Of a DNA stretch of 64,000 nt, positions 2,620 through 55,244 are shown piece after piece (within the stretch, counting starts at the first letter, position 1; each line of letters begins with the position of its first letter). This stretch comes from Candidatus Omnitrophota bacterium (GTDB lineage: Bacteria > Omnitrophota > Gorgyraeia > Tantalellales > Tantalellaceae). Location: the NCBI GenBank assembly GCA_034723315.1, contig JAYEOV010000017.1, forward strand, positions 6,612 through 70,611, in the 5' to 3' direction. A program made the position numbers and the translations under genes. The notes beneath the pieces were generated by a model. The model made no database searches. It saw only the letters and a list, made by a program, of their open reading frames with translations, and had not been told where the DNA came from.

Positions 2620-4049
2620 TGGGTAGTGTTTCTAAGAAGTTATTGTCGAAGGTGAGGAAACTTCCGGATACGCCGGGGGTCTATAAGTTCCTCGATCCGA
2701 AGGGGCGCGTGATCTACGTGGGCAAGGCGAGGCGTCTCCGGCGCCGCGTCGCTTCTTATTTCCGGCCGGGCCGGGCGCGTGACAGCCGCCTGGAGCTTCT
2801 GGTAAGCGAGGTCCGTGACATAGCTTTTATCAGGGCTTCTTCCGAGGCGGAAGCGCTCATATACGAAGCCGGGCTTATAAAGGACCACAAACCCAGGTTC
2901 AATATCGATCTCAAGGACGACAAGTCGTATCCGTTCCTCAAGCTTACGGTGAACGAGAAATATCCACGGCTTTTTCTCACGCGCCGGAGGATCGGGGACG
3001 GAGCCCTTTATTACGGGCCGTATGTCAACGTGAAGCTCCTTAAAGCGGCGTTGTCCTTTATGAAAAAGGTGTTCCAGCTGAGGAGCTGCCGCGTCATGCG
3101 TAAATCCGTCTGTCTTGAGTATCACCTGGGCCAGTGTCTGGGGCCGTGCGAGAAGAAAATAACGGACAGGGAATACGCCGAAACGGTCGATCAGCTCAAG
3201 AAATTCCTTGAAGGGCGGAAGGACGATCTTATACGGTCGCTAGAGAAACAGATGCAGCGGTTTTCCGGGAGGAGGGAATATGAGAAGGCCCTGGCCGTGA
3301 AAAAACGTATTGAGGCCCTTACCGCGGTTCAGCAGCTTCACGACAGGTCGCAGTATCCCGTATACGGGGAGCTTGACGAACTGCAGAACGCGCTGGCCCT
3401 CCCGCGGATGCCGGTGAGGATAGAGTGTTTTGATATTTCAAACATTAGCGGGCAGCAGGCCGTGGGGTCCATGGTAAGGTTCATCGCCGGGAGCCCTCGT
3501 AAATCGGATTACCGGAGATTCCGGATAAAAGGGCGTGAAGGGATAGACGATTACGCCATGATACGCGAAGTCGTCCGCAGGAGGTATTCGCGTCTTATCG
3601 AGGAAGGGAAAGCGCTGCCGGACCTGGTCATGATAGACGGCGGCAAGGGGCATCTTTCCGTGGCAAAGGAGGAGTTCGCGCGGCTGGGGCTGAACGACGT
3701 GCCGGTGGTCAGCATAGCCAAGGAGCATAACCATCTTTACACCGGATCGCGGGAACGGCCCATAAGGCTTTCGCCGGGGTCGCGGCTGCTTCTTCTTGTC
3801 CAGAGGATCAGGGACGAGGCGCATCGTTTCGCCGTGACGTATCACAGGAGGCTGAGGCGCGCCGAGAAGTTCGATACCGGGCTCAGGCGGATAAAAGGTA
3901 TCGGTCCGGCGAGAGAGAGGATGCTCCTGGAGAAGTTCGGGAGCAGGGACAATATACGCCGGGCCTCGGCTGAAAACCTGAAAAAGGCCGGACTGGACGA
4001 ACGCACGGTCCGGACGGTCGTTGAATATTTTTCGGGGACGCCCCACTAG
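2616..4049 (+). CDS. uvrC: Excinuclease ABC subunit C (UvrC), short form
   Basis: GIY-YIG motif GVYKFLDPKGRVIYVGKARRLRRRV, a UVR domain (EYEKALAVKKRIEAL), the UvrC RNase H-like endonuclease region and a C-terminal HhH (RIKGIGPARERMLLEKFG). The start was chosen at the ATGA overlap with the murJ stop; the ORF track start is 2592. Confidence 0.85.
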   Translation: MMGSVSKKLLSKVRKLPDTPGVYKFLDPKGRVIYVGKARRLRRRVASYFRPGRARDSRLELLVSEVRDIAFIRASSEAEALIYEAGLIKDHKPRFNIDLKDDKSYPFLKLTVNEKYPRLFLTRRRIGDGALYYGPYVNVKLLKAALSFMKKVFQLRSCRVMRKSVCLEYHLGQCLGPCEKKITDREYAETVDQLKKFLEGRKDDLIRSLEKQMQRFSGRREYEKALAVKKRIEALTAVQQLHDRSQYPVYGELDELQNALALPRMPVRIECFDISNISGQQAVGSMVRFIAGSPRKSDYRRFRIKGREGIDDYAMIREVVRRRYSRLIEEGKALPDLVMIDGGKGHLSVAKEEFARLGLNDVPVVSIAKEHNHLYTGSRERPIRLSPGSRLLLLVQRIRDEAHRFAVTYHRRLRRAEKFDTGLRRIKGIGPARERMLLEKFGSRDNIRRASAENLKKAGLDERTVRTVVEYFSGTPH

Positions 4050-4146
4050 AAACTAGGGACAGACACTAGTTTCCTATGGAAACTAGTGTCTGTCCCTAGT
4101 TTCTATAGTTTCTAGTCCTCAGGGTGGCACCTAGTGGGGCGTCCCC
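4034..4146. repeat. Nested perfect palindrome: inner 29-bp arms (4046-4074 and 4078-4106, with a 3-nt loop TAT) inside outer 16-bp arms (GGGGACGCCCCACTAG at 4035-4050 and its reverse complement at 4131-4146)
   Basis: Read directly: ctagaaactagggacagacactagtttcc TAT ggaaactagtgtctgtccctagtttctag, flanked by ggggacgcccc and ggggcgtcccc. No T-tract follows it. Confidence 0.8.
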
Positions 4147-4204: not shown

Positions 4205-5306
4205 ATGATAGACAAGTTAAAAGAATCATTGGAGCTTCTGGATACCAAGTTCGAAGAACTACGGGGGTATCTTTGACCTGGATAGAAGGTCGAAAAGGAT
4301 AAAAGAACTTGAAACCGAGCTCAATGATCCCGAGATATGGAAGAACCAGGAACGGGCGGACAGTCTTTCACGCGAACTGAAGGCGGTCAGGTCTATTGTC
4401 GGTCCGTATATCGAGATAAAAGAGCGGCATGACACGGTTAAGGAACTCGCGGAGATAGTCGAACCCGAAGACGCGGGATCCATAGACAGCCTGCTCGAAG
4501 AGGTTGAGGATGTCAGGAAACAAATAGACAAGCTTGAATTCAAATGCCTCCTGGGGGGAGAAGCCGACAGGTGCGCCGCTATTATAAGTATTAACGCGGG
4601 CGCTGGGGGCACTGAATCGTGCGACTGGGCGTCCATGCTCCACAGGATGTATCACCAGTGGGCCTGGGGGAACAGCTATACCACGGAAAACGTCGATCAG
4701 CTCCCCGGGGAAGAAGCGGGTATTAAGAGCGCGACTTTCATCATAAGGGGAGATTTCGCCTACGGTTATCTCAAGTCGGAGACGGGGGTACATCGTCTCG
4801 TCCGGATATCGCCCTTCGATTCAAACAAAAGACGCCATACCTCTTTCGCTTCGGTTGACGTCATACCCGAAATTGACAAGAACATAGCTGTGGAGATCAA
4901 CGAGAGCGATCTCAGGGTGGACACGTACCGTTCGTCGGGCGCCGGCGGGCAGCATGTGAACGTTACCGATTCAGCGGTAAGGATAACGCATGTGCCGACC
5001 GGGGTAGTGGTGCAGTGCCAGAAAGAGCGTTCACAGCACAAGAACAAAGCGACGGCCATGAAGATACTGAGAGCCCGGCTGTACGAGATGAAGAAGAGAG
5101 AGAACGAAGAAGAGGTGATGCGGGCATACGGGGACAAGAAAAAGATCGAATGGGGCAGCCAGATCCGATCCTACGTGCTTCACCCGTACAAGATGGTGAA
5201 GGATCACAGGACGGAAGAGCAGACCTCGAACGCCGAAAAGGTGCTTAACGGCGATCTTAGTATGTTCCTGGAGGCTTATCTGAAGAAGACAGCCGCGAAG
5301 AAATAA
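4205..5306 (+). CDS. prfB: Peptide chain release factor 2 (RF2), translated with a programmed +1 ribosomal frameshift at codon 24 (CTT TGA C, 4271-4277)
   Basis: Frame 1 reads MIDKLKESLELLDTKFEELRGYL and then hits an in-frame TGA at 4274-4276. The +1 frame continues DLDRRSKRIKELETELNDPEIWKNQ... through the GGQ motif (SSGAGGQHVNVTDSAVRITH) to 5306. The RF2-specific SPF tripeptide is present (RISPFDS). An SD-like AGGGGG lies 3 nt upstream of CTT TGA C, exactly as at the E. coli prfB frameshift site. Confidence 0.92.
4262..4277 (+). promoter_or_regulatory. prfB autoregulatory +1 frameshift site (internal SD-like GGGGG + CTT TGA C)
   Basis: cgggggtatctttgac: the in-frame UGA is followed by C (a weak stop context), with an upstream SD-like element at canonical spacing. 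Confidence 0.85.
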
Positions 5307-5338
5307 GAAGAAAATTGTAACGCATTCGTAGATTACAG

Positions 5339-5410
5339 TTCGCGGCCTGGAGGCCGCTCCTACGGGTTATACAGCAACGCATTCGTAGGAGCGGCCTCCA
5401 GGCCGCGAAC
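5339..5410. repeat. Inverted REP doublet: GTTCGCGGCCTGGAGGCCGCTCCTACG at 5339-5365 and its reverse complement at 5384-5410
   Basis: Read directly. Each REP is also preceded by the short direct repeat AACGCATTCGTAG (5321-5333 and 5378-5390). Confidence 0.85.
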
Positions 5411-5421
5411 AAACAATAACG

Positions 5422-5919
5422 ATGATAAAATTATATCACCAAAACAAGTTGCGTAAAGCCAGAATATACGATTCAAAATATCCGTATTTTATGACAATTT
5501 GCGCATATAACATGCAAGATGTGCTGACAAAGGAATGTGTTCCGGAAATATTTGTTGAGAGCATTAAATGGTTTATCGCGAATTCGGTTATCTTAAATCT
5601 TGGTTTTGTGATCATGCCGAATCATTTGCACTGGGCTTTTGCCATAAGAGGGGATGGCAAGTTGGACAATATTATGCGCGAATTTAAAGGTTATACGGCA
5701 AGGAAGATTAAAAAACTATCAGATATTAAGCAGAAAATTTGGCAGAAGGGATATTATGATCATTCATTAAGAGATATGAAGGATTTCAAGATAAAGTTGG
5801 AATATATGCATAACAACCCGGTTAGAAAAGGTATAGTGGATAAAGCGGAGAATTATTTGTATTCAACGGCAAATGAAAGATATAAGGGATTGATAGATTG
5901 GGAGTATGTAACGGGATGA
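5422..5919 (+). CDS. REP-associated tyrosine transposase (RAYT; IS200/IS605-like Y1 HUH transposase, TnpA_REP)
   Basis: 165 aa with the HUH motif MPNHLHWAF and a C-terminal catalytic Tyr region (YLYSTANERY). The AT-rich ORF is sandwiched between GC-rich REP copies on both sides. Confidence 0.75.
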   Translation: MIKLYHQNKLRKARIYDSKYPYFMTICAYNMQDVLTKECVPEIFVESIKWFIANSVILNLGFVIMPNHLHWAFAIRGDGKLDNIMREFKGYTARKIKKLSDIKQKIWQKGYYDHSLRDMKDFKIKLEYMHNNPVRKGIVDKAENYLYSTANERYKGLIDWEYVTG

Positions 5920-5926
5920 AGGTACA

Positions 5927-6010
5927 GTTCGCGGCCTGGAGGCCGCTCCTACGTGGTGAGACGGGAGGGTTCGCGGCCTGGAGGCCGCTCCTACGGGTGA
6001 GACGGGAGGA
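5927..6010 (+). repeat. Tandem direct doublet of a 42-bp unit (REP GTTCGCGGCCTGGAGGCCGCTCCTACG + GGTGAGACGGGAGG), 5927-5968 and 5969-6010
   Basis: Read directly. The second unit's GGGAGGA also serves as the Shine-Dalgarno for secA (ATG at 6016). Confidence 0.85.
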
Positions 6011-6015
6011 CTAAA

Positions 6016-9000
6016 ATGTTCGGATTTTTGATGAACCTTTTAAAGAGTATGTTCGGGACGCAGAACGAGCGCGAACTCAGAAAACTGGAGCCTGTGGTCC
6101 TGGAGATAAACGCGCTCGAAGAGGAGTTCTCGTCCCTTTCGGATGACCGGATAAGGGAAAGGGCCGGACGTATAAGGGAAGAGATCAGGCGCGCCCGCGG
6201 GGAAATAAAGGCCGAGATAAATGCGATACGCGAACAGGTCGTCGCGTCCACATCGGAACAGGAGAAGAACAAACACAGGAAACGCCTGAAAGAGGCCAAG
6301 AACAGGGTGCTTGACGAAAGGATACCCGAGGTCTTCGCGGCGGTGAGAGAGGCGGCCAGGAGGACCATTGGGCTCAGGCATTTTGACGTCCAGCTCATGG
6401 GGGGGATCGTCCTGCACCAGGGAAAGATCGCGGAGATGGCAACCGGCGAGGGGAAGACGCTCGTGGCGACGCTGCCTGTCTGCCTGAACACGTTTTCCGG
6501 CGAGACTGTTTATATCATCACGGTGAACGACTATCTGGCCAAGAGGGACAGCGGGTGGATGGGGCCGGTCTATGAATTCCTGGGGCTTTCGGTGGGTGTC
6601 ATACAGCATGACATGAGACCCGAGGAAAAGAAGAAAGCTTACGCGTGCGACGTGGTCTACGGCACCAACAACGAGTTCGGGTTCGATTACCTCAGGGACA
6701 ACATGGTGATAGATAAAAGTGATATGGTCCAGGGGCATCCGAGTTTCGCTATTGTCGATGAGGTCGATAGCATCCTTATTGACGAAGCGAGGACGCCGCT
6801 GATAATATCGGGACCGGTGGATGAAACGAACGAGGCGTACAACCAGATGCGGCCGGTCATCCAGGAAGTGGTGAGGGCCCAGAAGAAGACGGTAGCGGAC
6901 TACATCTCACGGTTCCGTGAAACGTTCCGCGACGGGAAGGAAGACGAGGCGGGCCGGATGCTTTACCTCCTGCACAAGGCCGATCCCAGGAACCGCGAGT
7001 TCCTGGATATCATACTTAAGGACACGCGCGCGAAATCGTTGTTCGACAAGGCGCAGTCCCTGCACGACAGCAAGGTGATGGAGAAGGAGCGTCACGAGCT
7101 TCTTGAACAGCTTTTCTATGTCTTCGACGAGAAGTCGAAAGAGGCGACCTTCAGCGCGAAGGGCCAGGCCCTGATGCGGGAGAAGTTCAACCTGGAGTTC
7201 ATGCTCGAGGATATAGAGGCGAAGCTGGCGGAACTGGCCGAGGCCGAGGAGGGCGTTCCGATGGAGGAGAAAGTCGCCAGGGAGACGGAACTCGTGGCTT
7301 CTTATTCGGACCAGCAGAGAAAGGTGGAAAGCGTCAAGCAGCTGCTGAAAGCGTATATACTTTTTGAGAAAGACGTCGATTACGTCATCAAGGATAACAA
7401 GGTAGTCATTGTGGATACCTTCACGGGAAGGATGATGCCGGGACGCCGTTTCTCGGACGGCATACATGAGGCGATCGAGGCCAAGGAACGCGTCGAGGTG
7501 CAGAGAGAGAGCCAGACGCTTGCCACGATCACACTCCAGAACTATTTTCGCATGTTCGACAAGCTAGCCGGCATGACAGGCACCGCGAAGACAGAGGAGG
7601 GTGAGTTCGAGAATATTTATCTTCTGCCGGTCGTTCAGGTTCCGCCGAACCGTCCTCTGAAACGCGAGAGCATGGCGGATCGCATATACAAAACGGAAAA
7701 GGAAAAATTCGACGCCGTTATAGACGAAATAGCGGATCTGCACGAAAAAGGGCGTCCGCAGCTCGTGGGGACCGTCTCTATAGAAAAGTCCGAGCGGCTC
7801 AGCAAGCTGCTTACCACGCGCGGGATAACGCACAACGTCCTGAACGCCAAGCACCACGAAAAAGAAGCGCACATAATCGCGCAGGCGGGCCGCTACGGCG
7901 CGGTGACGATAGCCACGAACATGGCCGGCAGGGGGACCGACATCCTGCTGGGAGGCAATCCCGAGTTTCTCGCCCGGGACGCGGTGAGCAAGCTGGAGAT
8001 GGACGATCCCGGGGAAATAGAAAAGGCTTTAGACAGGTTCCTCGAGGAGTTCAACAGGAAGACCGAGGACGAGAAACAGAGGGTTCTTGAGTTCGGGGGG
8101 TTGCACGTCCTCGGGACAGAAAGACACGAGGCCAGGAGGATAGACAACCAGCTCCGGGGCCGTTCCGGCAGGCAGGGGGATCCCGGTTCGAGCAGGTTCT
8201 ATCTTTCTCTGGAGGATGACCTGATGAGGATATTCGGTTCCGACAGGATAAAAGGGGTCATGGACCGCCTCGGCATGGAGGAAGGCGAGGTCATCGAGAA
8301 CCCGCTGGTCACGCGTGCCGTGAGAACGGCCCAGACCAGGGTGGAGGGCCAGAACTTTGAGATAAGGAAGCATCTTCTCAAGTACGATAACGTGATGAAC
8401 CAGCAGAGAGAGGTCATATATAGGAGACGGCGCGTTATCCTTGAGGAGACGGACCTGAAAAAAGAGTTTTTTGAAAGTCTCACGGTGGGGTTGGAATCGC
8501 TTCTTCAAAACTGGGAAACGGTACCGGAGCCGGCCGACTTTGCCAAACAGGTCATGTACCATTTTGTGATAAACGTCAAACCCGATATGCTTGAGGGCAA
8601 GAGGGCGGAGGAGGTCATTGATCTGGTAATGGGTATCGCCGAGAAAAATTATTCAGCAAGGGAGAAGTTCCTCGGGGAAGAAAGGATGAGGGAGCTTGAG
8701 AAGATGGTCATGCTCTCGGTGATAGATTCCAACTGGAAGGAGTATCTCAGGGAGATCGACGATCTCAGGGAGGGGATCTCCTGGAGGGCGTACGCGCAGA
8801 AAGATCCCTTCATTGAGTTTCAGCATGAGGGCTTCAAGATGTTCACGGAACTGATGGTGAAGATAGACGAGCAGACGGCGGAACGCGTCATGAAGATCTC
8901 CGCGATGGAGGAACAGTACAGAAAAAGCGTTTTCCAGCCCGAAAAAGAGACCCTTGAGCACAGGGGGTATTCCGCCATAGGGACCCCGGCCGCCGGCCAG

Positions 9001-9295: not shown

Positions 9296-10843
9296 ATGTT
9301 GCGTATTTTTAACGTGAAAAAACACTGGAAGAAAATACTGCTTGCCGCTCTGTCCGGTATGCTTTGCTTTCTTGCCTTTCCGCCTTTCGAGTTCGCCCTT
9401 CTCGGGTGGGTATGCGTCATCCCTCTTTTATTCGCGATAAGAGGGAGCGGCCCCAGACGGGCTTTCTGGTACGCGTATCTGTCCGGCCTGGTATTTTTCG
9501 GATGTCTTCTGTCCTGGCTTGTGAACGTGACAGTCCCGGGGACGATCATACTCGTGCTGATCCTTTCGGCCTTTTACGGTCTTTTCGGGCTGGTAACCGG
9601 TATCGCTTTTAAATATTCGATGGACTTTCTGCTCCTGCCTTTTGTATGGGTGGTACTGGAATATATACGCAGTCATATCCTTACGGGTTTCCCCTGGGGG
9701 ATCCTGGGTTATTCACAGTACAGGAACATGAAGCTTATACAGATCGCCGATTTTACCGGGGCTTACGGCGTCTCCTTCGTGCTGACGGTCTTCAACGTCG
9801 CTCTTTTCACTCTGCTGATCAGGTCCAAAAGAAGGGTGCCCTGCATGGTGATCGCCCTGCTTTTCATGCTCATGTCCACCAGTTACGGGATGTACAGGCT
9901 CAACAACCTGAACAGCTGGGGCTATTCGCGCATGAGCGTTGTGCAGGGAAATATCCCACAGCAGATGAAATGGGACTCCCGGTACGCGGAAGAGATAATA
10001 GACGTCTACAGCGGCCTGACCAGGCAGGCGGCCAAGGATTCGCCAGACATGATAATATGGCCCGAGACGGCCTACCCGTACCTTGTCGGGGCGAGCGTTG
10101 ATCCCGCCGAAGAGATCAATTCGCTTGCCGCGGAAACGGGCATCCCGATCCTCGCGGGCATCGTTTCTTCCGGAAGTGCTGGTTACTATAACAGCGCGAT
10201 CCTTTTCACCGGCGGGAAAAAATTAAAAGAAGTATACCGCAAAATTCATCTTGTCCCTTTCGGGGAATACGTGCCGTTTGGCAGGTATTTTGATTTTTTG
10301 CGCGGTCACATAGATAAACCCATAGGCGATTTTGAAAGAGGCGATGAATACACTCTCTTTAAGGTCAAGTCCATGCAGTTCTCGGGGCAGAAAGGTGACG
10401 GTTCCGTTATGCGCCGTATGAACTTTTATAAGTTCGGCGTCCTGATATGCTTTGAGGACATATTCCCTTATCTGGCGAGGACCTTCGTTCGGGAAGGGGC
10501 CGGTTTCCTTGTGAATATCACCAACGACGCCTGGTTCGGGGAAACGGGAGCGCCCGCGCAGCATCTGCAGGCGTCGGTTTTCCGGGCGGTGGAGAACAGG
10601 GTGCCCGTCGTGCGTGCGGCCAATACGGGGATATCATGTTTTGTGGATTTCACGGGCGAGATCGTATCGATTCTGGAAGAGGAAGGGAAAAGTATCTTTG
10701 TCAGAGGCTACGACACAGCCGCCGTGAATATGTGCGCGAGGCGCACTTATTACACGCACTACGGCGATATTTTCGTCTATTTCTGCGGGTTCATCATCGT
10801 GCTCCTGGTAGTAATGGAGGCCTTTCTAGCGCGCAGAAAATAA
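9296..10843 (+). CDS. lnt: Apolipoprotein N-acyltransferase Lnt
   Basis: N-terminal polytopic membrane domain plus a CN-hydrolase domain (WPETAYPY; catalytic Cys in GVLICFED). Its 515 aa length is typical for Lnt. Confidence 0.85.
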   Translation: MLRIFNVKKHWKKILLAALSGMLCFLAFPPFEFALLGWVCVIPLLFAIRGSGPRRAFWYAYLSGLVFFGCLLSWLVNVTVPGTIILVLILSAFYGLFGLVTGIAFKYSMDFLLLPFVWVVLEYIRSHILTGFPWGILGYSQYRNMKLIQIADFTGAYGVSFVLTVFNVALFTLLIRSKRRVPCMVIALLFMLMSTSYGMYRLNNLNSWGYSRMSVVQGNIPQQMKWDSRYAEEIIDVYSGLTRQAAKDSPDMIIWPETAYPYLVGASVDPAEEINSLAAETGIPILAGIVSSGSAGYYNSAILFTGGKKLKEVYRKIHLVPFGEYVPFGRYFDFLRGHIDKPIGDFERGDEYTLFKVKSMQFSGQKGDGSVMRRMNFYKFGVLICFEDIFPYLARTFVREGAGFLVNITNDAWFGETGAPAQHLQASVFRAVENRVPVVRAANTGISCFVDFTGEIVSILEEEGKSIFVRGYDTAAVNMCARRTYYTHYGDIFVYFCGFIIVLLVVMEAFLARRK

Positions 10844-10896
10844 GGGGACAGCGCCCCTATTTCTTCAATAAATAGGGGCGCTGTCCCCTTATTTTG
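10842..10896 (+). terminator. Intrinsic terminator built from two inverted copies of the GGGGACAGCGCCCCTATTT unit (21-bp arms, loop CTTCAAT, then TTATTTT)
   Basis: aaggggacagcgcccctattt cttcaat aaataggggcgctgtcccctt atttt, immediately after the lnt stop. Confidence 0.75.
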
Positions 10897-11643: not shown

Positions 11644-11730
11644 TGAAAGAAAGGGCAAGTATTTCCCCCCTTTGAAAGAAAGGGCAAGTATTTCCCCCTT
11701 TGAAAGAAAGGGCAAGTATTTCCCCCCTTT
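11644..11730 (+). repeat. Three tandem direct repeats of a 28-29 bp unit TGAAAGAAAGGGCAAGTATTTCCCCC(C)T
   Basis: Read directly at about 11644, 11673 and 11702. The last copy merges into the left 28-bp inverted repeat at 11727. Confidence 0.85.
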
Positions 11731-12156
11731 GAAAAAGGGGGTTAGGGGGATTTTCTTTTTAGGATGTTAAAATACAACGTGAATTTAAAACACAAAGCTC
11801 GTCGATTACGCAGGGAAATGACAGATAGTGAGCGAGCGTTATGGACGAGGTTACGGGGAAAACAAATTTTAGATATTCAATTTTATCGGCAGAAGCCCAT
11901 TGGGGGCTATATTGTAGATTTTTATGCATCCCAGGCAAGGATTGTAGTAGAAGTGGATGGGGCACAGCATATGGAAACAGATCAGGAACAAAAAGATGCA
12001 CAACGAGATATATACTTGAAGAACGAGGGATTATATGTATTGCGTTTTAACAATCTACAAGTTTTGCAAGAGCTGGATTCTGTTATGGAAGTGATTTATC
12101 AAGCAGTAAAAGAAAGATTAGAAACTAAAAAATCCCCCTAACCCCCTTTTTCAAAG
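11727..12156. mobile_element. DUF559 endonuclease-like ORF bracketed by perfect 28-bp inverted repeats (CTTTGAAAAAGGGGGTTAGGGGGATTTT at 11727-11754; reverse complement at 12129-12156); candidate small selfish cassette
   Basis: Both arms read directly and are identical. The right arm overlaps the last 4 codons and the stop of the ORF. The interior is AT-rich compared with the flanking genes. Confidence 0.5.
11764..12141 (+). CDS. DUF559 (Vsr/restriction-endonuclease-like fold) domain protein
   Basis: 125 aa. ERALWTRLRGKQILDIQFYRQKPIGGYIVDFYASQARIVVEVDGAQH...VLRFNN matches the DUF559 pattern (ExxLWxxLR...FRRQxPIGxYIxDFxCxxxxLvIELDGxxH...vlRF). Confidence 0.7.
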   Translation: MLKYNVNLKHKARRLRREMTDSERALWTRLRGKQILDIQFYRQKPIGGYIVDFYASQARIVVEVDGAQHMETDQEQKDAQRDIYLKNEGLYVLRFNNLQVLQELDSVMEVIYQAVKERLETKKSP

Positions 12157-12315
12157 GGGGGAGGGGAGTAAGTATAACGCATTCATTTAAATAGAGGGCC
12201 TCTGGGAAACCGTGCAAGCCTAATAGGCTATTAAGAAGGTTCCCTGCCAGGAAAGCGGGAATCCACTGTTGGCGGTTAGCAGTGATACGCGATACGGAAC
12301 ACGCGATACGAAAAA

Positions 12316-21031: not shown

Positions 21032-21481
21032 GTGAAGACGATACACGTTAAAATAAAACGCAAAGAAAGCGCGAAAGACCTTCCGATCCCGACCTACGCT
21101 ACCAGCGGATCCAGTGGAGTGGATCTCTATGCCGACGTTGAAGGCGAGACAGAGATCTCTCCGGGAGAAATAAAGCTGATATCCTGCGGCATTTACATTG
21201 AACTTCCCGATGGATATGAAGCTCAAATAAGGCCCAGGAGCGGTTTGGCTTTGAAACACGGCATTACCTTGGTGAACACTCCCGGGACCATCGACAGTGA
21301 TTACCGCGGCCTGATCAACCTCATAGTCATAAATCTCGGCAAAGAGGATTTTCTCCTCAGGCGCGGACAAAGACTGGCCCAGATGGTTTTTCGCGAGATC
21401 ACACGCGCCGAGTTCCGGGAAACGGAAGAAATCGGCGAGACTGAGAGATCGCACGGCGGGTTTGGGCACACGGGTATTTAG
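21032..21481 (+). CDS. dut: dUTP diphosphatase
   Basis: 149 aa (GTG start). Motifs [49 protein letters not shown] and RIAQMVF. Confidence 0.9.
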
Positions 21482-21485
21482 TGCA

Positions 21486-21544
21486 ACGTTAAGTAAATAA
21501 TGTTGCATTGATAATCATAACCTTATTTGTTTAACAAGACATTA
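21486..21544 (+). repeat. About 60-bp imperfect-palindrome element, copy A (CGTTAAGTAAATAATGTTGCATTGATAATCATAACCTTATTTGTTTAACAAGACATT)
   Basis: Near-identical to the reverse complement of 48989-49048 (about 3 mismatches). Internal hairpin GTTAAGTAAATAA / TTATTTGTTTAAC. Confidence 0.75.
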
Positions 21545-25648: not shown

Positions 25649-25676
25649 AGTAGGGCACCTTTAAAGGTGCCCTACT
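25649..25676. repeat. 28-bp perfect palindrome AGTAGGGCACCTTTAAAGGTGCCCTACT, copy 1
   Basis: Read directly. An identical copy lies at 28776-28803. Confidence 0.85.
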
Positions 25677-25730
25677 TGCTTAATTTAATGTAGTAGAAAA
25701 TTCCTTATTGAGAACACATTAACCAAAGCT

Positions 25731-25827
25731 GTAGGAGCGGCCTCCAGGCCGCGAACCCCCTAGTGTTAATTTTGTTAGCGGCCAGGAGGCCGCTCCTACG
25801 GGATAAGGCCTGGAGGCGGCTCCTACG
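25731..25827. repeat. Cluster of three REP copies (same family as at 5339-6010): full reverse-orientation copy 25731-25756, forward copy with a 1-nt deletion 25778-25800, partial forward copy 25808-25827
   Basis: gtaggagcggcctccaggccgcgaac / gcggccaggaggccgctcctacg / ggcctggaggcggctcctacg, read directly upstream of rimO. Confidence 0.8.
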
Positions 25828-28775: not shown

Positions 28776-28803
28776 GTAGGGCACCTTTAAAGGTGCCCTA
28801 CTT
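28776..28803. repeat. 28-bp perfect palindrome AGTAGGGCACCTTTAAAGGTGCCCTACT, copy 2
   Basis: Identical to 25649-25676. The two copies bracket rimO-pgsA-pgpA and the 28.3-28.7 kb non-coding stretch. Confidence 0.85.
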
Positions 28804-29267: not shown

Positions 29268-30818
29268 ATGAAAAAATTTACACTCTTAATTGATGGAAAA
29301 GACCTGGATACAGGGGATTATAGATACTTTCCGAATATTGATAAAATTATAATAGATCCCAAGAAGGCAAGAAGGGCAATATATTCTAAAAAGGAATCAT
29401 CATACAAAGATAAAAAACACGATCATATATATGGGAAATATTGTTTAAGTAAAGATGAAGATAATATAAAAGCCATTGATGCAGCTCAAGAAGCATTTAC
29501 TAAATTTAAGAAGATTTCTCTTCTATCAAAAAGGAAAATGTTTCATGATATGTATGAACTCCTGATAAAGAAAAAGGAAGAATTTATAAAGATCCTTATA
29601 GCTGAAGGTCATCCAAGAAAATTGGCAGAGTGGGAATTTGAAGGGATGCGAATGGGAAGTTCTCATGAAACAATTGATTTTTATTTTTCACAAATACGAA
29701 AAGAAATAGGAAGAAATGGATCTGAAATTGTATATTGGGCAAGGAAACCCGATGGGGTAGTATGTTTAAATCCGCCGAGAAACGCCGCGTCCAGCAACTC
29801 ATATAATGCTATTCTAGCACTTATTACCGGAAACACATTGATAATAAAGCCACCTTTAAAAACCCCGATTTCCACGATTTTCTTGTGGAAAGAAATAATA
29901 TGGGAGGCAATAAAGAAAAACGGTGCTCCCAATGGATCTGTTAATATCGTATTAGGTAATTCTCAGAAGATTTTAGAAACATGGTTAAGCTCTCCTAAGG
30001 TAAATGATATTATCTATTTTGGAAATAGCAGCAAAGGGCTCGGTGTCGGGGATAAAATATTTCTTGCGAGAAAAAAACCCATTTTAGAGCTCTCAGGTAA
30101 TGATCTATTTCTTGTTTGGAAAGATGCTGATATAGAAGGAGCTACTAATTCTCTTTTGGATTGTTTCCTAGGTTCAACTCAAATATGTATGGTTCCGAAA
30201 ATAGCTATTATTCATGAAACAATATACGAAACTTTTCTTGATGTTTTCAAGCGGAAAATTAAATCGTTAACATTTGGATTGCCTTCAGACAATGATACAA
30301 TTTTTAGCCCTGTTGCAAAAATTAAGGAGTTTTATGAATTTTTGAATGATGCCTTAGAAAAAGGAGCAAAACTGCTTTATGGTGGTGAACGTGTTAATTA
30401 TCTTGGATTGATGGATAATAATGGATCATATATTCAACCTACACTGGTGGAGATTGAAGATTCAAGTAATTTCGAAAATATGAAATGTTTTAAAGATGAA
30501 ATATTCTTTCCTCTTTTACCTTTAGTAAAAATCACAGGAAATGATGATGATATTTTTGAGAAGATCGTAAATATAGTTAATAATCATGAGTATGGGTTAA
30601 GGACGTCGTTATGGATCTCTTCTTTTAAATATTTACGCATGTTCGCTAAGAATTTAGACAATACCGGGTTGCTTAGAATAAACACAAGGCACATAGGTTT
30701 TTCTCGTTACCTTTCCACGCATGGTGGCACAAAAAAGAGTGGGGGTCCTTTTGGTGAAATGAATTATTTTTGGCAGAAGACCTCGCATCTGCAAGGCGTG
30801 GCCAGAATGGTGAGATAA
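29268..30818 (+). CDS. Divergent aldehyde dehydrogenase-superfamily protein
   Basis: 516 aa. ELSGNDLFLVWKDADIEGATNSLLDCFLGSTQICMVPKIAIIHE aligns to the ALDH ELGGKSP...GQxCxA catalytic Glu/Cys region. Very AT-rich, with an N-terminal extension of about 60 aa. Confidence 0.6.
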   Translation: MKKFTLLIDGKDLDTGDYRYFPNIDKIIIDPKKARRAIYSKKESSYKDKKHDHIYGKYCLSKDEDNIKAIDAAQEAFTKFKKISLLSKRKMFHDMYELLIKKKEEFIKILIAEGHPRKLAEWEFEGMRMGSSHETIDFYFSQIRKEIGRNGSEIVYWARKPDGVVCLNPPRNAASSNSYNAILALITGNTLIIKPPLKTPISTIFLWKEIIWEAIKKNGAPNGSVNIVLGNSQKILETWLSSPKVNDIIYFGNSSKGLGVGDKIFLARKKPILELSGNDLFLVWKDADIEGATNSLLDCFLGSTQICMVPKIAIIHETIYETFLDVFKRKIKSLTFGLPSDNDTIFSPVAKIKEFYEFLNDALEKGAKLLYGGERVNYLGLMDNNGSYIQPTLVEIEDSSNFENMKCFKDEIFFPLLPLVKITGNDDDIFEKIVNIVNNHEYGLRTSLWISSFKYLRMFAKNLDNTGLLRINTRHIGFSRYLSTHGGTKKSGGPFGEMNYFWQKTSHLQGVARMVR

Positions 30819-30839
30819 TATGTCAAAATATTCAAGGGG

Positions 30840-32138
30840 ATGAAAATAAAAGCGGATTATATTATTGTGGGTTCTGGCGCTGGTGGCGCTAGTGTTGCTC
30901 GAGAGCTGGCAAGAGCTGGGAAAAATGTATTAGTTCTTGAAAAAGGCAAATTTGCAACGAATATTGGTACCCAGGTAGGTGCTTTAAAGTTTTATGACCA
31001 CTTTGCATTAAGATCGAGTATAGAAGGATTTATAGTATATAGTGCGATCATGGGTGGCGGCAGTACAGTTATTTGTTGCGGGAATGGGATGCCTGTATTA
31101 AGTAAAGAGCTTGAGGCTTTCGGCATAGACTTATCTGAAGAATTTAAAGAGACTGAAAACGAGTTGGAGATCCGACCGTTACCGGAAGAACTCATTGGTG
31201 AGGGCTCTCAATTAATAATGAGGACAGGTAATAAAATAGGTCTTGAAATGATACCAATGCCGAAGTTTGTAGACTTCAGCAAGTGTGATTCTTGCGGCAA
31301 ATGTGTGCTTGGATGTATAAGAGGCGCAAAGTGGACAGCAGTAAAATACCTCCAGGAAATGCAGCAACACGGCGGTAGGATCTTATACGGTGTAGATGTG
31401 AAAAAGATAATTGTAAAAAAAGGAAGAGCTGTTAGTTTGATCGCCAAAAAAGGAATGAAGAAGATTATATTAGACGCAAATTACATTGTGTTGGCTGCAG
31501 GCGGCCTGGCAACTCCCGCAATATTGAAAAGAAGTGGATTAAAAGACGCCGGTAATAAATTATTTGTTGATTTTTTTAATGTGACATTTGGAACCTTGAA
31601 GGATGTGAGTGTTAATTTGTATAAAGAACCCACTATGGCTGTAGTAAGTACTAAATATTTGCAAGATAAAGGTTTTTTGGTCTCTCCATTTTTATTCCCA
31701 CCGCTCATTATGCCATGGATAATGCCTTTGTTTAAATTAGGTAAACTATTTAATTACAGGAACTTATTAGGTATTATGACTAAAATAAAGGATGATAATG
31801 AAGGAAAAGTATTATCAAATGGAAGATTTTATAAAAAGCCTACTAAAGAGGATATTATCAGGTTAAATGAGGGAGAAGAAATAGCCACGCAAATATTAAG
31901 AGAAGCTGGCGTAAAGGAAAAAGATATCTTCACTTCAAAATCCTGTGGCGCTCATCCTGGAGGAACAGCCGCAATTGGAGATGTTGTTGATAGTGATCTA
32001 ATGACAGAAATAGCGAATCTATTTGTTTGTGATGCGAGTGTATTACCTGTATCAAGCGGAGCTCCTCCAATTGTAACAATAGTTTCTCTTGGAAAAAGAC
32101 TAGGCAAATATTTATCAAGGGATCAAATGAAAAGATGA
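30840..32138 (+). CDS. Short FAD-dependent oxidoreductase, GMC-family-like
   Basis: N-terminal Rossmann motif YIIVGSGAGGASVARELARAGKNVLVLEKG and a C-terminal GMC_oxred_C-like region (CGAHPGGTAAIGDVVDSDLMTEIANLFVCDASVLPVSSGAPPIVT). Only 432 aa. Confidence 0.6.
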   Translation: MKIKADYIIVGSGAGGASVARELARAGKNVLVLEKGKFATNIGTQVGALKFYDHFALRSSIEGFIVYSAIMGGGSTVICCGNGMPVLSKELEAFGIDLSEEFKETENELEIRPLPEELIGEGSQLIMRTGNKIGLEMIPMPKFVDFSKCDSCGKCVLGCIRGAKWTAVKYLQEMQQHGGRILYGVDVKKIIVKKGRAVSLIAKKGMKKIILDANYIVLAAGGLATPAILKRSGLKDAGNKLFVDFFNVTFGTLKDVSVNLYKEPTMAVVSTKYLQDKGFLVSPFLFPPLIMPWIMPLFKLGKLFNYRNLLGIMTKIKDDNEGKVLSNGRFYKKPTKEDIIRLNEGEEIATQILREAGVKEKDIFTSKSCGAHPGGTAAIGDVVDSDLMTEIANLFVCDASVLPVSSGAPPIVTIVSLGKRLGKYLSRDQMKR

Positions 32139-34273
32139 ATTTATACGGCATTTCAAATATCTTAATTGCAATAACTAGTTCGGGTATCGCGCTATTTGTT
32201 TATGTTAAAGGCTATAGAAGTAAATTATGCAAAATATGGTCAGTTTTTGCTTTATGCGTTGCTATTTATGGATTTGGCGCCTATATGGCAGCTGGGGCAA
32301 AAAATCATGATTCTGCTTTTTTTTGGTGGCAAATTTCGTATGTCGGCGTAATAATGCTGCCTGCTTTATTTCTGCATTTTGTTTATGTTTTTCTTGATAT
32401 CAGGAAAACATTTTTAATAAAAATTGTTTATCTGGTAACACTTGTTATTTTGGCTACGGATATTTTTAATAAGCAACTATTTATTGGCAATGTAAGTTTG
32501 TTATTCAAAAATTCTGAACTATTTCAACCAGCGTGGTGGGTTTATCCTCCAGGCCCTATACATATTTTCTATACACTTTTTTTATATGCGGGGATACTTA
32601 TATATGCTCACATTAAATTAATCAGGGCCTATAAAAGATCTGAAAGATCGAAGCAGAACCAAATCAGATATTTTTTTCTTGCAACTACATTAGGTTTTAT
32701 AGGAGGAGGCACTTCTTTTTTGCCTTGTTCTGGTATAAATATCTATCCTGTTTTTAATATAACAGTACCATTGTATCCTCTAATTATGACTTACGCTATT
32801 ATTCGTCATCAGTTGATGGATATTGAAGTTATAATTAAAAAAACTATTGTCTTTGCATCATTATTTATTATTCTTTTTGGTGTTTTTGTAGGAATAACCC
32901 TTATTACTCAAGAATTGATTGCGGAAGGAAGGATTTTTGGGTTAGCGATAAGCGCTCTTATTATTATTTTTTCGGTTCGTCCGCTTGAGGATTTACTGGT
33001 AAGGGGTACCGACAAATATTTATTCCAGAAGAAATATGATTACAGGCAATTGTTGAGAACTTTTTCTGATGAGGTGCTTACAGTTCTCGATCTTGATATG
33101 CTTGTAAATCTTACGGTTAATAAACTTGTGGAGACAATGAAACTTTTCAACGCGGCTATGTTGCTTCACGATGAAAAAAATGAGGAGTACAGGATCGTGT
33201 CATCAACAGGTTTGGAAGACGTTGAGTTTAAATTAAAGGATGATGAAGAGATAATAGTATATTTGCGGAAAAACAGGCAACATATTCTGTTTGAAAGCGA
33301 GGATGGACAAATATCTTTAAGCGGTAATATTAAGAGGAAGATAAGTGGTTTACGGTCATCCATGGTCATCCCACTGTTTCATCACAAGGATATGGTGGGG
33401 ATATTGTCTCTGGGAAAGAAAAAATCAGACGAAGAGTTCACGCAGGATGATTTTGACATACTTCTGCCGCTTGCCAGAACGCTTTCCATAGCAATAGCCA
33501 ATGCCAGGCTTTTTGAGAAACTTTCTGTAGCCCAGGCACAGGCGGCACAAAGAGAAAAAATGGCCGTTATAGGGACGCTTTCGGCCGGGATCAACCACGA
33601 GATATGTAATCCCCTGGGGATAGCCAGGGGGCAATGCGAGATGTTTCTTTTAAATCTTAAAGAAGGCCTGTATGCGGGTAAGGATCCTGAAGATCTGCTC
33701 GAAAAGGCGAAACTAATAATGCAGAAGGTCATCGATGAGACTGACAGGGCCACGGTCATAACCAGAAAGCTTTCTTCGTTCGCCAAACCCGCGAAAGGAA
33801 AGCTGGAGGGCAACGTCCGGTTGAAAAAGGAAATAGAAGAAGTAGCTTCGCTTGTGGAGCACGATTTGAGGCTGGACAATATACTGATAGTCAGGGAGAT
33901 ACAGCCGGATCTGCCGTATATCGCGGCTGACCGGAAACAGGTACAGGAAATATTTTTCAATATCATAATAAATGCCGCGCAGTCGATCGTCTCCGGCGGA
34001 AAAATAACGATCCGGGCCAAAAGTGACGATAAAAAGGTCTATGTGGAGATAGAAGATACGGGTGTCGGTATCAAAAAGACCAATTTAAACCAGGTATTCA
34101 ATCCCTTTTTTACGACTAAGGACCCGGGAAAAGGTACCGGATTGGGGCTTTTTCTTGTGAAGCAGATCGTTGAAAGGAATAAAGGGCGTATCTCCGTTCA
34201 GAGCGAACAGGGAAAGGGCGCCTGTTTTCGTCTTGTGTTTAAAGCGATCGTTCCTGAAAAGGTAAAGATTTGA
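32135..34273 (+). CDS. Sensor histidine kinase with an N-terminal 7TM-type membrane domain, a GAF domain, HisKA and HATPase_c
   Basis: Seven predicted TM helices in the first ~250 aa, a GAF-like region (MVIPLFHHKDMVGILSLGKKKSDEEFTQDDFDIL), an H-box (AGINHEICNPLG), and N/G boxes (IIINAAQS; DTGVGI; GTGLGL). Confidence 0.8.
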   Translation: MNLYGISNILIAITSSGIALFVYVKGYRSKLCKIWSVFALCVAIYGFGAYMAAGAKNHDSAFFWWQISYVGVIMLPALFLHFVYVFLDIRKTFLIKIVYLVTLVILATDIFNKQLFIGNVSLLFKNSELFQPAWWVYPPGPIHIFYTLFLYAGILIYAHIKLIRAYKRSERSKQNQIRYFFLATTLGFIGGGTSFLPCSGINIYPVFNITVPLYPLIMTYAIIRHQLMDIEVIIKKTIVFASLFIILFGVFVGITLITQELIAEGRIFGLAISALIIIFSVRPLEDLLVRGTDKYLFQKKYDYRQLLRTFSDEVLTVLDLDMLVNLTVNKLVETMKLFNAAMLLHDEKNEEYRIVSSTGLEDVEFKLKDDEEIIVYLRKNRQHILFESEDGQISLSGNIKRKISGLRSSMVIPLFHHKDMVGILSLGKKKSDEEFTQDDFDILLPLARTLSIAIANARLFEKLSVAQAQAAQREKMAVIGTLSAGINHEICNPLGIARGQCEMFLLNLKEGLYAGKDPEDLLEKAKLIMQKVIDETDRATVITRKLSSFAKPAKGKLEGNVRLKKEIEEVASLVEHDLRLDNILIVREIQPDLPYIAADRKQVQEIFFNIIINAAQSIVSGGKITIRAKSDDKKVYVEIEDTGVGIKKTNLNQVFNPFFTTKDPGKGTGLGLFLVKQIVERNKGRISVQSEQGKGACFRLVFKAIVPEKVKI

Positions 34274-36480: not shown

Positions 36481-36663
36481 TTTAGGAAACTAATTTGAAA
36501 CAATATCTTTAACCGGATAGACAAAGGAAGTTTCCGTGAGAATCGGGACGCTGCCCAGCAACGGTGATCTTGATATGAGTTAAAAGTCAAGGAGCCCGGT
36601 CTATTGGCTATTCCGGAAAGTACCTTCTGGGGTAAGGGAAAAGATATTATGATAAGTAGTATG

Positions 36664-36688
36664 CCGACCCCAGGGGGTCGGTTTTTTT
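36664..36688 (+). terminator. Leader-embedded intrinsic terminator / attenuator hairpin (CCGACCCC..GGGGTCGG + T7) about 25 nt upstream of the metE start
   Basis: ccgaccccagggggtcggttttttt, read directly. A terminator sitting between a promoter and the start codon implies riboswitch-type or attenuation control. Confidence 0.55.
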
Positions 36689-36711
36689 ATTTGCGTAAAG
36701 GAGGAGAAAAA

Positions 36712-38913: not shown

Positions 38914-39951
38914 CTTTAGCTTGCGTGTTTAAGTATTAAATGGTATGATGTTTGATCATGGCACGACCTTTACGAATTGAATATCCGGGCGCCTGGTATC
39001 ACGTGATGAACCGCGGCAGGCGAAGAGAGCAGATTTTTTTTGATGAAAAAGATCGAGTTCTTTTTGTGGATATATTAGGAGATTGCACTAGACTTTTTAA
39101 TCTGGAAATACACGCCTATTCGTTGATGCCAAACCACTATCATTTATTAGTACGCACGCCTATCGCGAACCTTTCAAGAGCAATGAGACACCTGAACGGG
39201 GTTTATACACAAAAGATCAATTATCGTCATAAGTATGAAGGCAGTCTTTTTAAGGGAAGGTTTAAATCAATAGTCATAGAAGAAGAATCATACTTTCTTG
39301 AACTATTAAGGTATATTCACAGGAATCCATTAAAGGCGAAGATCGTGGAAAAGATCATTGAGCATAAATGGACAAGCCACAGGGCATATATGATAAAAAA
39401 AGAGCGGCCCGAATGGCTGAAAGTAAATACAGCTTTAATAAAATTCAGCCAGCATGAGAATGCGGCAAAAAGGAAACTGGACGCGTTTGTGCGGGAAAAA
39501 GTACCGGTGGAAATAGAACGTATATTAGATGGAATAAAGTGGCCGGCGATACTGGGCGGAAAGCAGTTTCAGGAAAAGATCAAAGAAAAAATAAAGGGAG
39601 AAAAGATCGACATCAGGGAAGTGCCGCAACATAAAGAGATCTGTAGTAGATTAACCGCGAAGGATGTTGCTGAGGTGCTGGTGAGAGAGCAAAAGAAGTG
39701 GGATGAAAATGTTTTCAGCGGACGGAAGAAGAGGATTTATACCGGGAAGAGACGTGCGTTTGTGTACGTGTGCCGGGAATATCTATATGCGGTGAACAGA
39801 GATATATGCGAAGCTCTGGGAGATATTTCTTCTGCCGCCGTATCGATTTTGTATACGCAAGCCGTGGAAAAGGTGAAAAAGAAAGAGGATTTGTACGAAG
39901 AAGTAAAGGGGATCGTTGATTTGCTAAAGTTAAATTTTAAGACTTGACCCC
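38892..39951 (+). mobile_element. IS200/IS605-like element (about 1060 bp) with perfect 29-bp terminal inverted repeats GGGGTCAAGTCTTAAAATTTAACTTTAGC (38892-38920; reverse complement at 39923-39951), carrying one Y1 transposase gene
   Basis: Both TIRs read directly. The left TIR overlaps the metE stop. The right TIR overlaps the transposase stop and, on the other strand, the stop of the XRE-cupin gene. Confidence 0.75.
38958..39947 (+). CDS. IS200/IS605-family (COG1943-like) HUH Y1 transposase with a C-terminal extension
   Basis: HUH motif SLMPNHYHLLV and a catalytic Tyr region YIHRNPLKAKIV. 330 aa and AT-rich. Confidence 0.75.
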   Translation: MARPLRIEYPGAWYHVMNRGRRREQIFFDEKDRVLFVDILGDCTRLFNLEIHAYSLMPNHYHLLVRTPIANLSRAMRHLNGVYTQKINYRHKYEGSLFKGRFKSIVIEEESYFLELLRYIHRNPLKAKIVEKIIEHKWTSHRAYMIKKERPEWLKVNTALIKFSQHENAAKRKLDAFVREKVPVEIERILDGIKWPAILGGKQFQEKIKEKIKGEKIDIREVPQHKEICSRLTAKDVAEVLVREQKKWDENVFSGRKKRIYTGKRRAFVYVCREYLYAVNRDICEALGDISSAAVSILYTQAVEKVKKKEDLYEEVKGIVDLLKLNFKT

Positions 39952-48988: not shown

Positions 48989-49048
48989 AATGCCTTGTTA
49001 AACGAATAAGGTTATGATTATCAATGCGACATTATTTACTTAACGCTC
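48989..49048 (-). repeat. About 60-bp imperfect-palindrome element, copy B (inverted relative to copy A at 21486-21544)
   Basis: The reverse complement reads ggagCGTTAAGTAAATAATGTCGCATTGATAATCATAACCTTATTCGTTTAACAAGGCATT, about 95% identical to copy A. Confidence 0.75.
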
Positions 49049-49095
49049 CACTAGATTACATTTTTTCATTTTAAATTCCGCACTTTTAATTAATT

Positions 49096-55190: not shown

Positions 55191-55244
55191 CTTAACAAGC
55201 ATATAGGGGTCAAATCGTTAAGTTAAATTTTAAGACTTCACCCC
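55169..55244. mobile_element. 76-bp MITE derived from the IS200/IS605-like element at 38892-39951 (left end GGGGTCAAGTCTTAAAATTTAACTTAAC 55169-55196; inverted right end 55217-55244 with 1 mismatch)
   Basis: Both ends read directly. The 22 terminal bp are identical to the TIR of the full element and there is no internal transposase. Confidence 0.75.

Follow-up and report, generated by a model that had tools for sequence, protein, structure and literature searches.

A REP-associated tyrosine transposase gene with cognate REP hairpins between prfB and secA of an Omnitrophota genome: a probable recent insertion

How does a transposase gene bracketed by short palindromes come to lie between prfB and secA in an uncultured bacterium: as a domesticated resident that maintains a genome-wide population of repeats, or as a newcomer? 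The locus lies on contig JAYEOV010000017.1 of a Candidatus Omnitrophota bacterium, within a 64-kb stretch that was analysed as a whole and is called the window below. The first-pass annotation of the window described a REP-associated tyrosine transposase (RAYT, or TnpA-REP) gene flanked by repetitive extragenic palindromes (REPs), and took the transposase to be domesticated. We find that the locus is very probably a REPtron, that is, a RAYT gene with its cognate REPs, which sits as an inserted module and looks like a young colonisation rather than an old domesticated system. What is known of RAYT/REP systems comes almost wholly from Proteobacteria and, to a lesser extent, from Cyanobacteria and Bacteroidetes; our literature search found no Omnitrophota paper that also describes REPs or RAYTs.

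Sequence, motifs and fold all identify the open reading frame (ORF) at 5422-5919 as a RAYT. The HUH/Y1-like character first ascribed to it was borne out by hidden Markov models: it scores 110.5 bits against the NCBIfam RAYT equivalog NF047646 (cut-off 80) and 37.4 bits against Pfam Y1_Tnp PF01797 (cut-off 23), while the IS200/IS605 equivalog NF033573 gives 30 bits and fails its cut-off of 55. Its best sequence match in the PDB is 4ER8, the E. coli TnpA-REP (E = 5e-9). An AlphaFold2 model of the protein (pLDDT 86.9, pTM 0.83) likewise has 4ER8_A as its top Foldseek match in the PDB (E = 1.2e-9, TM 0.71, rmsd 2.3 Å), and the ISDra2, IS608 and IS200 transposases match it less well, with TM scores of 0.51-0.55. 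In an alignment with 17 homologues, H70, K89, W107, Y128, N132 and P133 are the same in every sequence, and H68 in nearly every one. The active site of E. coli TnpA-REP consists of H59-M-H61, Y115 and N119 (PMC3479197), and its contacts to the GTAG guide are made by W94, Q95, H101 and R104 (PMC3479197; PMC6006769); the last four align with W107, Q108, H114 and R117 of the window protein. The HUH motif noted in the first reading is present as H68-L-H70. The tyrosine that it placed at the C-terminus is Tyr128, which lies within a YMHNNP motif on a helix about three-quarters along the protein and not at its extreme C-terminus. The gene is single-copy in the window. In the public record MEA3488918.1 it is named merely "transposase", and we suggest that this be changed to REP-associated tyrosine transposase.

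The cognate repeat is 27 nt long. A search with the query GTTCGCGGCCTGGAGGCCGCTCCTACG at up to 3 mismatches returned six sites: 5338-5364 (+), 5384-5410 (-), 5927-5953 (+) and 5969-5995 (+), all exact, and 25730-25756 (-) and 25774-25800 (+). A looser Hamming scan added a seventh, decayed site with 6 mismatches. Four exact copies thus surround the ORF and three diverged ones lie at 25730-25827, in agreement with the seven copies counted previously (four exact, and one each with 1, 2 and 6 mismatches). The 27-mer had no match in 100 dinucleotide-preserving shuffles, and by the ORFs and gene annotation of the window all seven copies are extragenic. On its canonical strand, CGTAGGAGCGGCCTCCAGGCCGCGAAC, the REP has a GTAG head, a GA spacer, a 6-bp stem (GCGGCC/GGCCGC), the loop TCCA and a GAAC tail, and as single-stranded DNA it folds into a hairpin of -7.8 kcal/mol. 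The strands in the following list are those of the canonical, GTAG-first sequence and are opposite to those of the query.

5319-5331, plus strand: orphan REP head, first copy of the 13-nt repeat AACGCATTCGTAG, followed by unrelated sequence; an exact second copy is at 5376-5388
5338-5364, minus strand: REP-A, left arm of the upstream inverted doublet, exact 27-mer
5384-5410, plus strand: REP-B, right arm of the upstream inverted doublet, exact 27-mer, its GAAC tail 11 nt before the RAYT start
5422-5919, plus strand: RAYT (TnpA-REP) gene, 165 aa, GC 34.5%, GC3 (third codon positions) 0.40, HUH H68-L-H70, catalytic Tyr128
5927-5953, minus strand: REP-C, first downstream REP, exact 27-mer, 7 nt past the RAYT stop, inverted relative to REP-B
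5954-5968, plus strand: tail 1, TGGTGAGACGGGAGG, 15 nt, a duplicate of the secA leader with its Shine-Dalgarno sequence
5969-5995, minus strand: REP-D, second downstream REP, in tandem with REP-C, exact 27-mer
5996-6009, plus strand: tail 2, GGTGAGACGGGAGG, 14 nt, the functional secA Shine-Dalgarno region
25730-25756, plus strand: REP-E, dispersed, 1 mismatch, between a rodZ-like gene and rimO
25774-25800, minus strand: REP-F, dispersed, 2 mismatches, inverted relative to REP-E with the GTAG heads outward
25801-25827, minus strand: REP-G, decayed, 6 mismatches, head and 5' stem arm retained, 3' arm unpaired

Upstream of the gene, REP-A and REP-B form a perfect inverted doublet of 27 + 19 + 27 nt, with a folding energy in single-stranded form of -42.4 kcal/mol (z = -11); two inverted copies had indeed been described 5' of an AT-rich 165-aa ORF. 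A 13-nt direct repeat, AACGCATTCGTAG, lies on either side of REP-A and the spacer, and consists of the 8-nt 5' flank of REP-B plus a CGTAG head. It could be a trace of the addition of REP-A, by insertion after GTAG, or of a local duplication, two origins that look the same here. Downstream, REP-C and REP-D belong to a 42-nt direct tandem at 5927-6009 (2.0 copies, 97% matches) whose unit joins a REP to the tail TGGTGAGACGGGAGG. The secA ATG is at 6016, and a GGGAGG Shine-Dalgarno sequence lies in tail 2, 6 nt upstream of it. The tandem and its link to the secA Shine-Dalgarno had been seen correctly, though both tails had been given as 15 nt and the second is 14. The RAYT gene is thus bracketed by REP-B (+) 11 nt upstream and REP-C and REP-D (-) downstream, with REP-A as an extra inverted copy further upstream; RAYT genes are typically bracketed by inverted, GTAG-headed REPs in this way (Nunvar 2010, PMC2817692; Quentin 2018, PMC6006769). 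The neighbours are as first named: prfB and secA at the gene, and rimO at the distal cluster, which starts at 25730, one base before the position originally given. The prfB gene is intact, with the usual +1 programmed frameshift. The four REPs at the RAYT gene are identical and the distal ones are diverging; the loop variant TCCT of REP-F is the same as that in the REP of a relative (L088).

The distal pair at 25730-25800 is also an inverted doublet, of 27 + 17 + 27 nt, and the arrangement had been called a REPIN. The REPIN of Bertels and Rainey (2011) is reportedly two inverted REPs with a short spacer that form one long hairpin, the doublet being the copied unit. This geometry, an inverted pair and a long hairpin, is found at both 5338-5410 and 25730-25800. 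However, the GTAG heads point inward in the first and outward in the second, the spacers (ggttatacagcaacgcatt and cccctagtgttaatttt) are unrelated, and the third pair is a direct tandem. Because the polarities are opposite and the spacers unrelated, the REPs of the window look more like singlets in clusters resembling bacterial interspersed mosaic elements than like one doublet copied as a unit, an indication that is weak with only two doublets to compare. The RAYT-REP arrangement was rightly recognised; its description as a textbook REPIN is not supported.

When did the module arrive? SecA sets the host firmly in Omnitrophota, with a best non-self hit that is 79% identical. The three nearest relatives with DNA (SecA 76-79% identical) keep the order murJ-uvrC-prfB-secA-lnt, and their prfB-secA gaps measure 15, 7 and 26 nt, against 709 nt in the window. 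Given that the spacer of the relatives is only 7-26 nt, we infer that the RAYT module is an insertion. The spacer of the closest relative (L171), cgggagcataaaagc, resembles the bases before secA here, cgggaggactaaa, and the bases past the window's prfB stop (gaagaa) resemble the spacer of another relative; the stretch from about 5314 to about 5996 appears to be essentially all inserted, with REPs and the RAYT gene as its only content. Since the secA leader lies inside the 42-nt tandem unit, the duplication of REP plus tail would have arisen in place after the insertion. This REP family has no copy in the relatives' syntenic sequence (about 69 kb non-redundant out of 89 kb in total, L171 and L172 being the same region). 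The composition is foreign as well: the RAYT gene has a GC content of 34.5% against 53-57% in its neighbours, and a GC3 of 0.40 against 0.70-0.74 in uvrC, prfB and secA. Because the relatives lack both gene and REP in the syntenic region and the composition is foreign, the locus looks like a recent acquisition rather than the product of long vertical domestication; the first reading had taken the transposase to be domesticated.

Domesticated RAYT behaviour is said (Bertels 2017) to mean a single-copy, vertically inherited gene, as a tendency of Groups 2 and 3 and not as a strict criterion. The window RAYT, although single-copy in the 64 kb, does not show this behaviour, as it is missing from the syntenic site in three relatives and has a foreign composition. 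The accompanying claim of a genome-wide REP population is unproven: where the REPs of a RAYT are dispersed through extragenic space they typically number tens to hundreds, a single cluster of three copies lies away from the gene in the 64 kb, and no exact 27-mer was found in contigs from the Joint Genome Institute (JGI). The opposite concerns raised at the outset, an ORF foreign to Y1 models or a REP confined to this locus, are not what we see: the Y1 and RAYT models both match, and the REP occurs also at 25.7 kb and in another genome (L046).

Related RAYTs carry such REPs too. Every RAYT that is at least 49% identical (L083-L091), and several at 33-36% identity, is flanked by REPs of the same skeleton, GTAG-GA-GC[NNNN]-tcc(n)-[NNNN]GC-GAAY, with the head GT[AG]G. 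Among these relatives the inner stem varies (GGCC/GGCC, CGCC/GGCG, CAGC/GCTG, CGTC/GACG and GACC/GGTC), while the head GTAGGAG and the tail CGA are constant. Over a set of 21 distinct REPs, pairing holds in 99.2% of the stem cells, and both partners have changed in five of the six stem pairs (31 cells). Covariation scores 0.765, compared with 0.172 for shuffles and at most 0.139 for slid-partner controls. The REPs for this analysis were picked by a GT[AG]GGAG head and a recognisable GA tail, genic chance occurrences of GTAGGAG were excluded, and the alignment was N-padded for 3-nt versus 4-nt loops, where MAFFT had misplaced the gap. This selection somewhat inflates the pairing percentage, and the slid-partner control still separates the true register clearly. 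Because the stem changes are compensatory across the 21 REPs, these alignments indicate that the hairpin itself, and not the sequence alone, is conserved.

The closest RAYT homologue is 62% identical and occurs on metagenomic contigs, including those of Omnitrophota. The exact 27-mer is found once in another Omnitrophota metagenome-assembled genome (MAG; L046), at an unrelated intergenic site. Its 22-nt core is more widely distributed: 82 stretches of GTDB genomes match it exactly, almost all from proteobacterial MAGs and frequently with many copies in one genome. This is because the skeleton equals the published Pseudomonas/Xanthomonas REP type. At two of these proteobacterial loci a RAYT is adjacent, with the motifs MPDHLHW, WQ and YIVANP or YVVGNP (those of subclass 2.5, Bertels Group 3) and an N-terminal LRKGR similar to the LRKAR here, at a protein identity of only about 29%. 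The 82 core hits suggested a recent transfer of the REP from Proteobacteria. This was rejected, as the REPs of the nearest, Omnitrophota-type homologues differ by just 1-4 nt, the L088 REP equals the loop variant at 25774, and the proteobacterial RAYTs are so distant. Neither the REP core nor a RAYT relative was found in viral contigs, which gives no evidence for a phage vector. A full-text search of the literature with the string GTAGGAGC returned unrelated primer sequences only.

In another branch of the RAYT clade the gene keeps a conserved context, carbamoyltransferase-RAYT-SxtJ-like-DUF5989-LexA-like. Since it is syntenic there across genomes whose neighbour gene is 74% identical, with the RAYTs themselves 63% identical, vertical inheritance evidently also occurs within the clade. 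One clade member, L088:3106-3603 (P0008), has the first HUH histidine replaced (MPDYLHW) despite conserved synteny and REPs on both sides, and may be an inactivated or variant enzyme. The public annotation gives it 200 aa, with a start set too far upstream, and reads through a REP.

How could such a module work and spread? By analogy with E. coli TnpA-REP, the protein would be a monomeric HUH/Y1 nuclease-ligase of single-stranded DNA, and the monomer would bind the folded REP through the 3' stem base and the GTAG head (PMC3479197). A3 and G4 of GTAG may then pick a CT dinucleotide, at which Tyr128 and the HUH-bound metal would cleave and rejoin DNA through a 5'-phosphotyrosine intermediate. 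Strand transfer of this kind would copy or move REPs to other intergenic sites. As for its history, the comparison with relatives shows a module of about 690 nt (REP doublet, gene and REP tandem) that entered a prfB-secA spacer, originally of about 7-26 nt, in an Omnitrophota host with roughly 50-55% GC, the likely donor being a lower-GC member of the Omnitrophota-centred RAYT clade. After the insertion, a REP with 15 nt of secA leader was duplicated in place, and at least one REP cluster has arisen 20 kb away.

Several points weigh against this account of a young REPtron. The low GC may in part be a property of the clade, and to that extent would not date a recent transfer: the RAYT has a GC3 of 0.23-0.31 against 0.29-0.58 in its neighbours in each of the five relatives compared (clade loci L083-L090). 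Such a clade-wide AT bias is expected of genes that move between genomes; AT-rich donors may have passed the gene on repeatedly, or the bias may belong to the family itself. The absence of the module from three relatives could in principle be due to precise excision, which is possible for Y1 elements. The mechanism is taken entirely by analogy, and protein identity is low: about 23% to E. coli TnpA-REP and about 29% to the proteobacterial RAYTs beside the same core. Finally, a search of JGI metagenome contigs for the exact 27-mer gave 0 hits.

The best-surviving alternative, which we nevertheless consider improbable, is that the locus is an autonomous IS200/IS605-like insertion sequence whose ends are the REP hairpins, so that gene and ends transpose together and no domesticated RAYT serves dispersed REPs. 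The module has the look of such an element, being a clean insertion in a spacer of 7-26 nt, edged by REPs on either side and carrying nothing else; the gene is foreign in composition, its clade members occur in differing genomic contexts across lineages, and clade genes have a consistently higher AT content than their hosts, as is usual for mobile genes. What tells against it is first the protein, which passes the RAYT equivalog and fails that of IS200/IS605, and whose tyrosine motif is YMHNNP where IS200 transposases have Y[IV]ENQ (PMC6006769, Table 1). In addition, REPs without a gene occur at 25.7 kb and in L046, a single gene copy is present in 64 kb, and in another lineage the RAYT is syntenic beside the 74% identical neighbour gene, which argues for vertical inheritance there. 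REPtrons are moreover reported not to move as units (PMC6006769). We regard it as doubtful, if somewhat less so than the autonomous element, that the whole REPtron moved as one unit into a spacer of about 15 nt between two essential, tightly packed genes.

The remaining alternative, that the hairpins serve the host in regulating prfB, secA and rimO, as terminators, mRNA stabilisers or translational attenuators, and have a transposase-like gene beside them by accident, draws on the position of every copy between co-directional genes, on the secA Shine-Dalgarno sequence in one tail and on the stabilisation of upstream mRNA by E. coli REPs (background cited in PMC3479197 and PMC2817692), and can be set aside as highly improbable, because a scan of 5200-6100 found no terminator-like site of hairpin plus T-run, Rfam matched nothing at the REPs (tRNA-Ala being its sole hit in the window), the relatives' prfB-secA junction lacks any hairpin, and an invariant GTAG head with the same skeleton beside RAYTs in dozens of unrelated loci would go unexplained. 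Secondary regulatory effects of the REPs are possible on top of the inserted REPtron that we favour. Two weaker suggestions concern expression. The RAYT itself is probably poorly translated, because no Shine-Dalgarno sequence is evident upstream and a very stable hairpin ends just 11 nt before the start. The secA gene would now have to be transcribed across the insertion or from inside the AT-rich RAYT gene, in which a promoter-like site, matched by consensus only, lies at 5810-5837.

The window holds further repeats. A second Y1-transposase gene at 38952-39947 encodes a 331-aa protein with the HUH motif NHYH, the tyrosine motif YIHRNP and a C-terminal extension of about 190 aa; it scores 49 bits with Pfam Y1_Tnp and 72 bits with the NCBIfam RAYT model, just below the cut-off of 80. 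Perfect terminal inverted repeats (TIRs) of 29 nt, GGGGTCAAGTCTTAAAATTTAACTTTAGC, lie on both sides of the gene (38892-39951), and a doublet of GGGGTCAAGTCTTAAAATTTAACTTTAGC without a gene lies at 55169-55244, 15 kb away. The TIR consensus of the TIRYT class, subclass 2.1, is GGGG[AT][CG]A[CG] (PMC6006769), and the 331-aa gene with its TIRs fits this class. With a TIR-flanked gene in addition to the RAYT/REP locus, the window has two different systems of Y1 transposase and repeat. A second GTAG-tagged REP family is a perfectly symmetric 26-nt palindrome, GTAGGGCACCTTTAAAGGTGCCCTAC (GTAG...CTAC), with two exact copies at 25650-25675 and 28776-28801; it has the same form as the REPs at two distant RAYTs (L102 and L110), and no RAYT for it was found in the 64-kb window. 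With one of its copies just some 55 nt away from the cluster that starts at 25730, the intergenic region at 25.7 kb collects repeats.

A third palindromic family, AAATAGGGGCGCTGTCCCCTTATTT, occurs as back-to-back inverted pairs at 10838-10894, just past the lnt stop, and at 50184-50265, just past the tRNA-Ala at 50105-50180; this could be something like a terminator, or one more mobile hairpin. A perfect 28-bp palindrome with arms 3 nt apart (4047-4105) directly follows the uvrC stop, upstream of prfB. At 11644-11754, a 29-nt tandem repeat (3.2 copies, 96% matches) leads into a 34-nt perfect inverted repeat whose partner is 374 nt downstream (12129-12162), the tandem and the inverted repeat sharing one intergenic region. 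Inverted repeats of about 130 nt, at 60297-60427 and 63271-63455 (86-87% complementary), enclose about 2.8 kb with FAA-hydrolase, D-Tyr-tRNA deacylase and dCTP-deaminase-like genes. A 68-nt AT-rich sequence has inverted copies at 21476-21543 and 48989-49056 (91% complementary), both intergenic and one of them between dut and uppP; the pair has no Rfam match. Four islands of low GC (34-41% against a background of about 50-55%), at 27-1073, 29268-34273, 36604-39947 and 55274-55855, carry genes for an ATPase_2/AAA protein with a winged helix, an aldehyde dehydrogenase, a GMC oxidoreductase, a 7TM histidine kinase, the TIRYT and a CvpA-like protein. A good deal of AT-rich DNA seems to have entered the genome recently.

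The locus offers a clear and intact RAYT/REP example from the uncultured phylum Omnitrophota, of a known type of system and an ordinary member of it. That the REP skeleton is the same at a protein identity of about 29% suggests that the protein-DNA recognition code is strongly conserved. The empty syntenic sites together with the foreign composition document an acquisition, and bear on the debate between vertical domestication and horizontal transfer of RAYTs. Once recognised, REPs are less likely to be mistaken for terminators or assembly artefacts. If the RAYT did catalyse the insertion of the unit, this locus and the relatives with empty sites would be a natural before-and-after pair, the RAYT could still mobilise itself, and a Pseudomonas-type REP/RAYT system would be spreading among Omnitrophota. 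Such an insertion would run counter to the published view, in which REPtrons do not transpose as units and RAYTs are vertically inherited, domesticated genes.

How does the system compare with those already described? It resembles the E. coli K-12 TnpA-REP (YafM; 4ER8) in its HUH/Y1 fold (TM 0.71), in its length of 165 aa and in its active site, where H59, H61 and Y115 correspond to H68, H70 and Y128 and the metal ligand N119 to N132. The residues that contact GTAG (W94, Q95, H101 and R104) are conserved, and both genes are bracketed by 5'-GTAG REPs. In contrast, the E. coli protein belongs to subclass 2.2 (Bertels Group 2) and to another phylum, with about 23% identity and long, bulged REPs, whereas the REP here is short, with a 6-bp stem and GTAG 2 nt from it. 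In addition, E. coli H123 is a lysine here (K136), and 5 residues follow the conserved tryptophan compared with about 15 in E. coli. With only those 5 residues, an equivalent of the E. coli inhibitory tail around E161 is doubtful.

With the IS200/IS605 transposases (IS608 and ISDra2 TnpA) the window protein shares the HUH/Y1 core and subterminal hairpins with a 5' guide tetranucleotide and, by analogy, may share the single-strand 'peel and paste' chemistry; the module also arrived as a discrete insertion. Unlike them, it fails the IS200 equivalog, lacks the Y...Q motif and has TM scores of 0.51-0.55 to their structures, and its hairpins also occur without a gene.

Further parallels are found in Pseudomonas and Xanthomonas, whose REP skeleton (PMC2817692, Table 1) equals the one here, GTAGGAGCGGCCTCCAGGCCGCGAAC; published examples are TGTAGGAGCGGCCTTGcGTCGCGAA from P. 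putida W619, GTAGGAGCCAGCTTGCTGGCGAA from P. entomophila and GTAGGAGCGCGCTCGCGCGCGA from X. campestris (PMC2817692). The foot and stem of 12 nt fall within the range of subclass 2.5 (Bertels Group 3), which is 10-13 nt with GT[AG]G 1-2 nt from the stem (PMC6006769). With the proteobacterial RAYTs beside the identical core the protein shares the WQ motif, the change of E100 to Asp and the N-terminal LRK[GA]R. Subclass 2.5 proteins have the motifs DH[LF]H, WQ and YI[VI]ANP and a length of about 151 aa (PMC6006769, Table 1), from which the window protein differs in its YMHNNP, nearer to the pattern of subclasses 2.4 and 2.6, its 165 aa and its identity of about 29%. Its HUH motif is NHLH where clade relatives have DHLH or DHFH. 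Subclass 2.5 has been described as largely xanthomonad and pseudomonad, and the host here is of Omnitrophota; judged by the 64-kb window, the REP copy number also appears low against the Pseudomonas and Xanthomonas systems.

The history that we propose fits the case of Thauera, in which a rayt gained by horizontal transfer came with a REP type of its own and new REPs favoured the vicinity of the gene (Nunvar 2010, PMC2817692). In Thauera the REPs are numerous and the donor is clear, the RAYT being 56% identical to those of Pseudomonas, whereas the nearest homologue here is 62% identical and comes from metagenomic contigs. As in Thauera, close relatives lack a counterpart of the RAYT, the REP type appears to have been imported together with the gene, and the REPs are concentrated near it, four of the seven copies at the gene itself and the rest within 20 kb.

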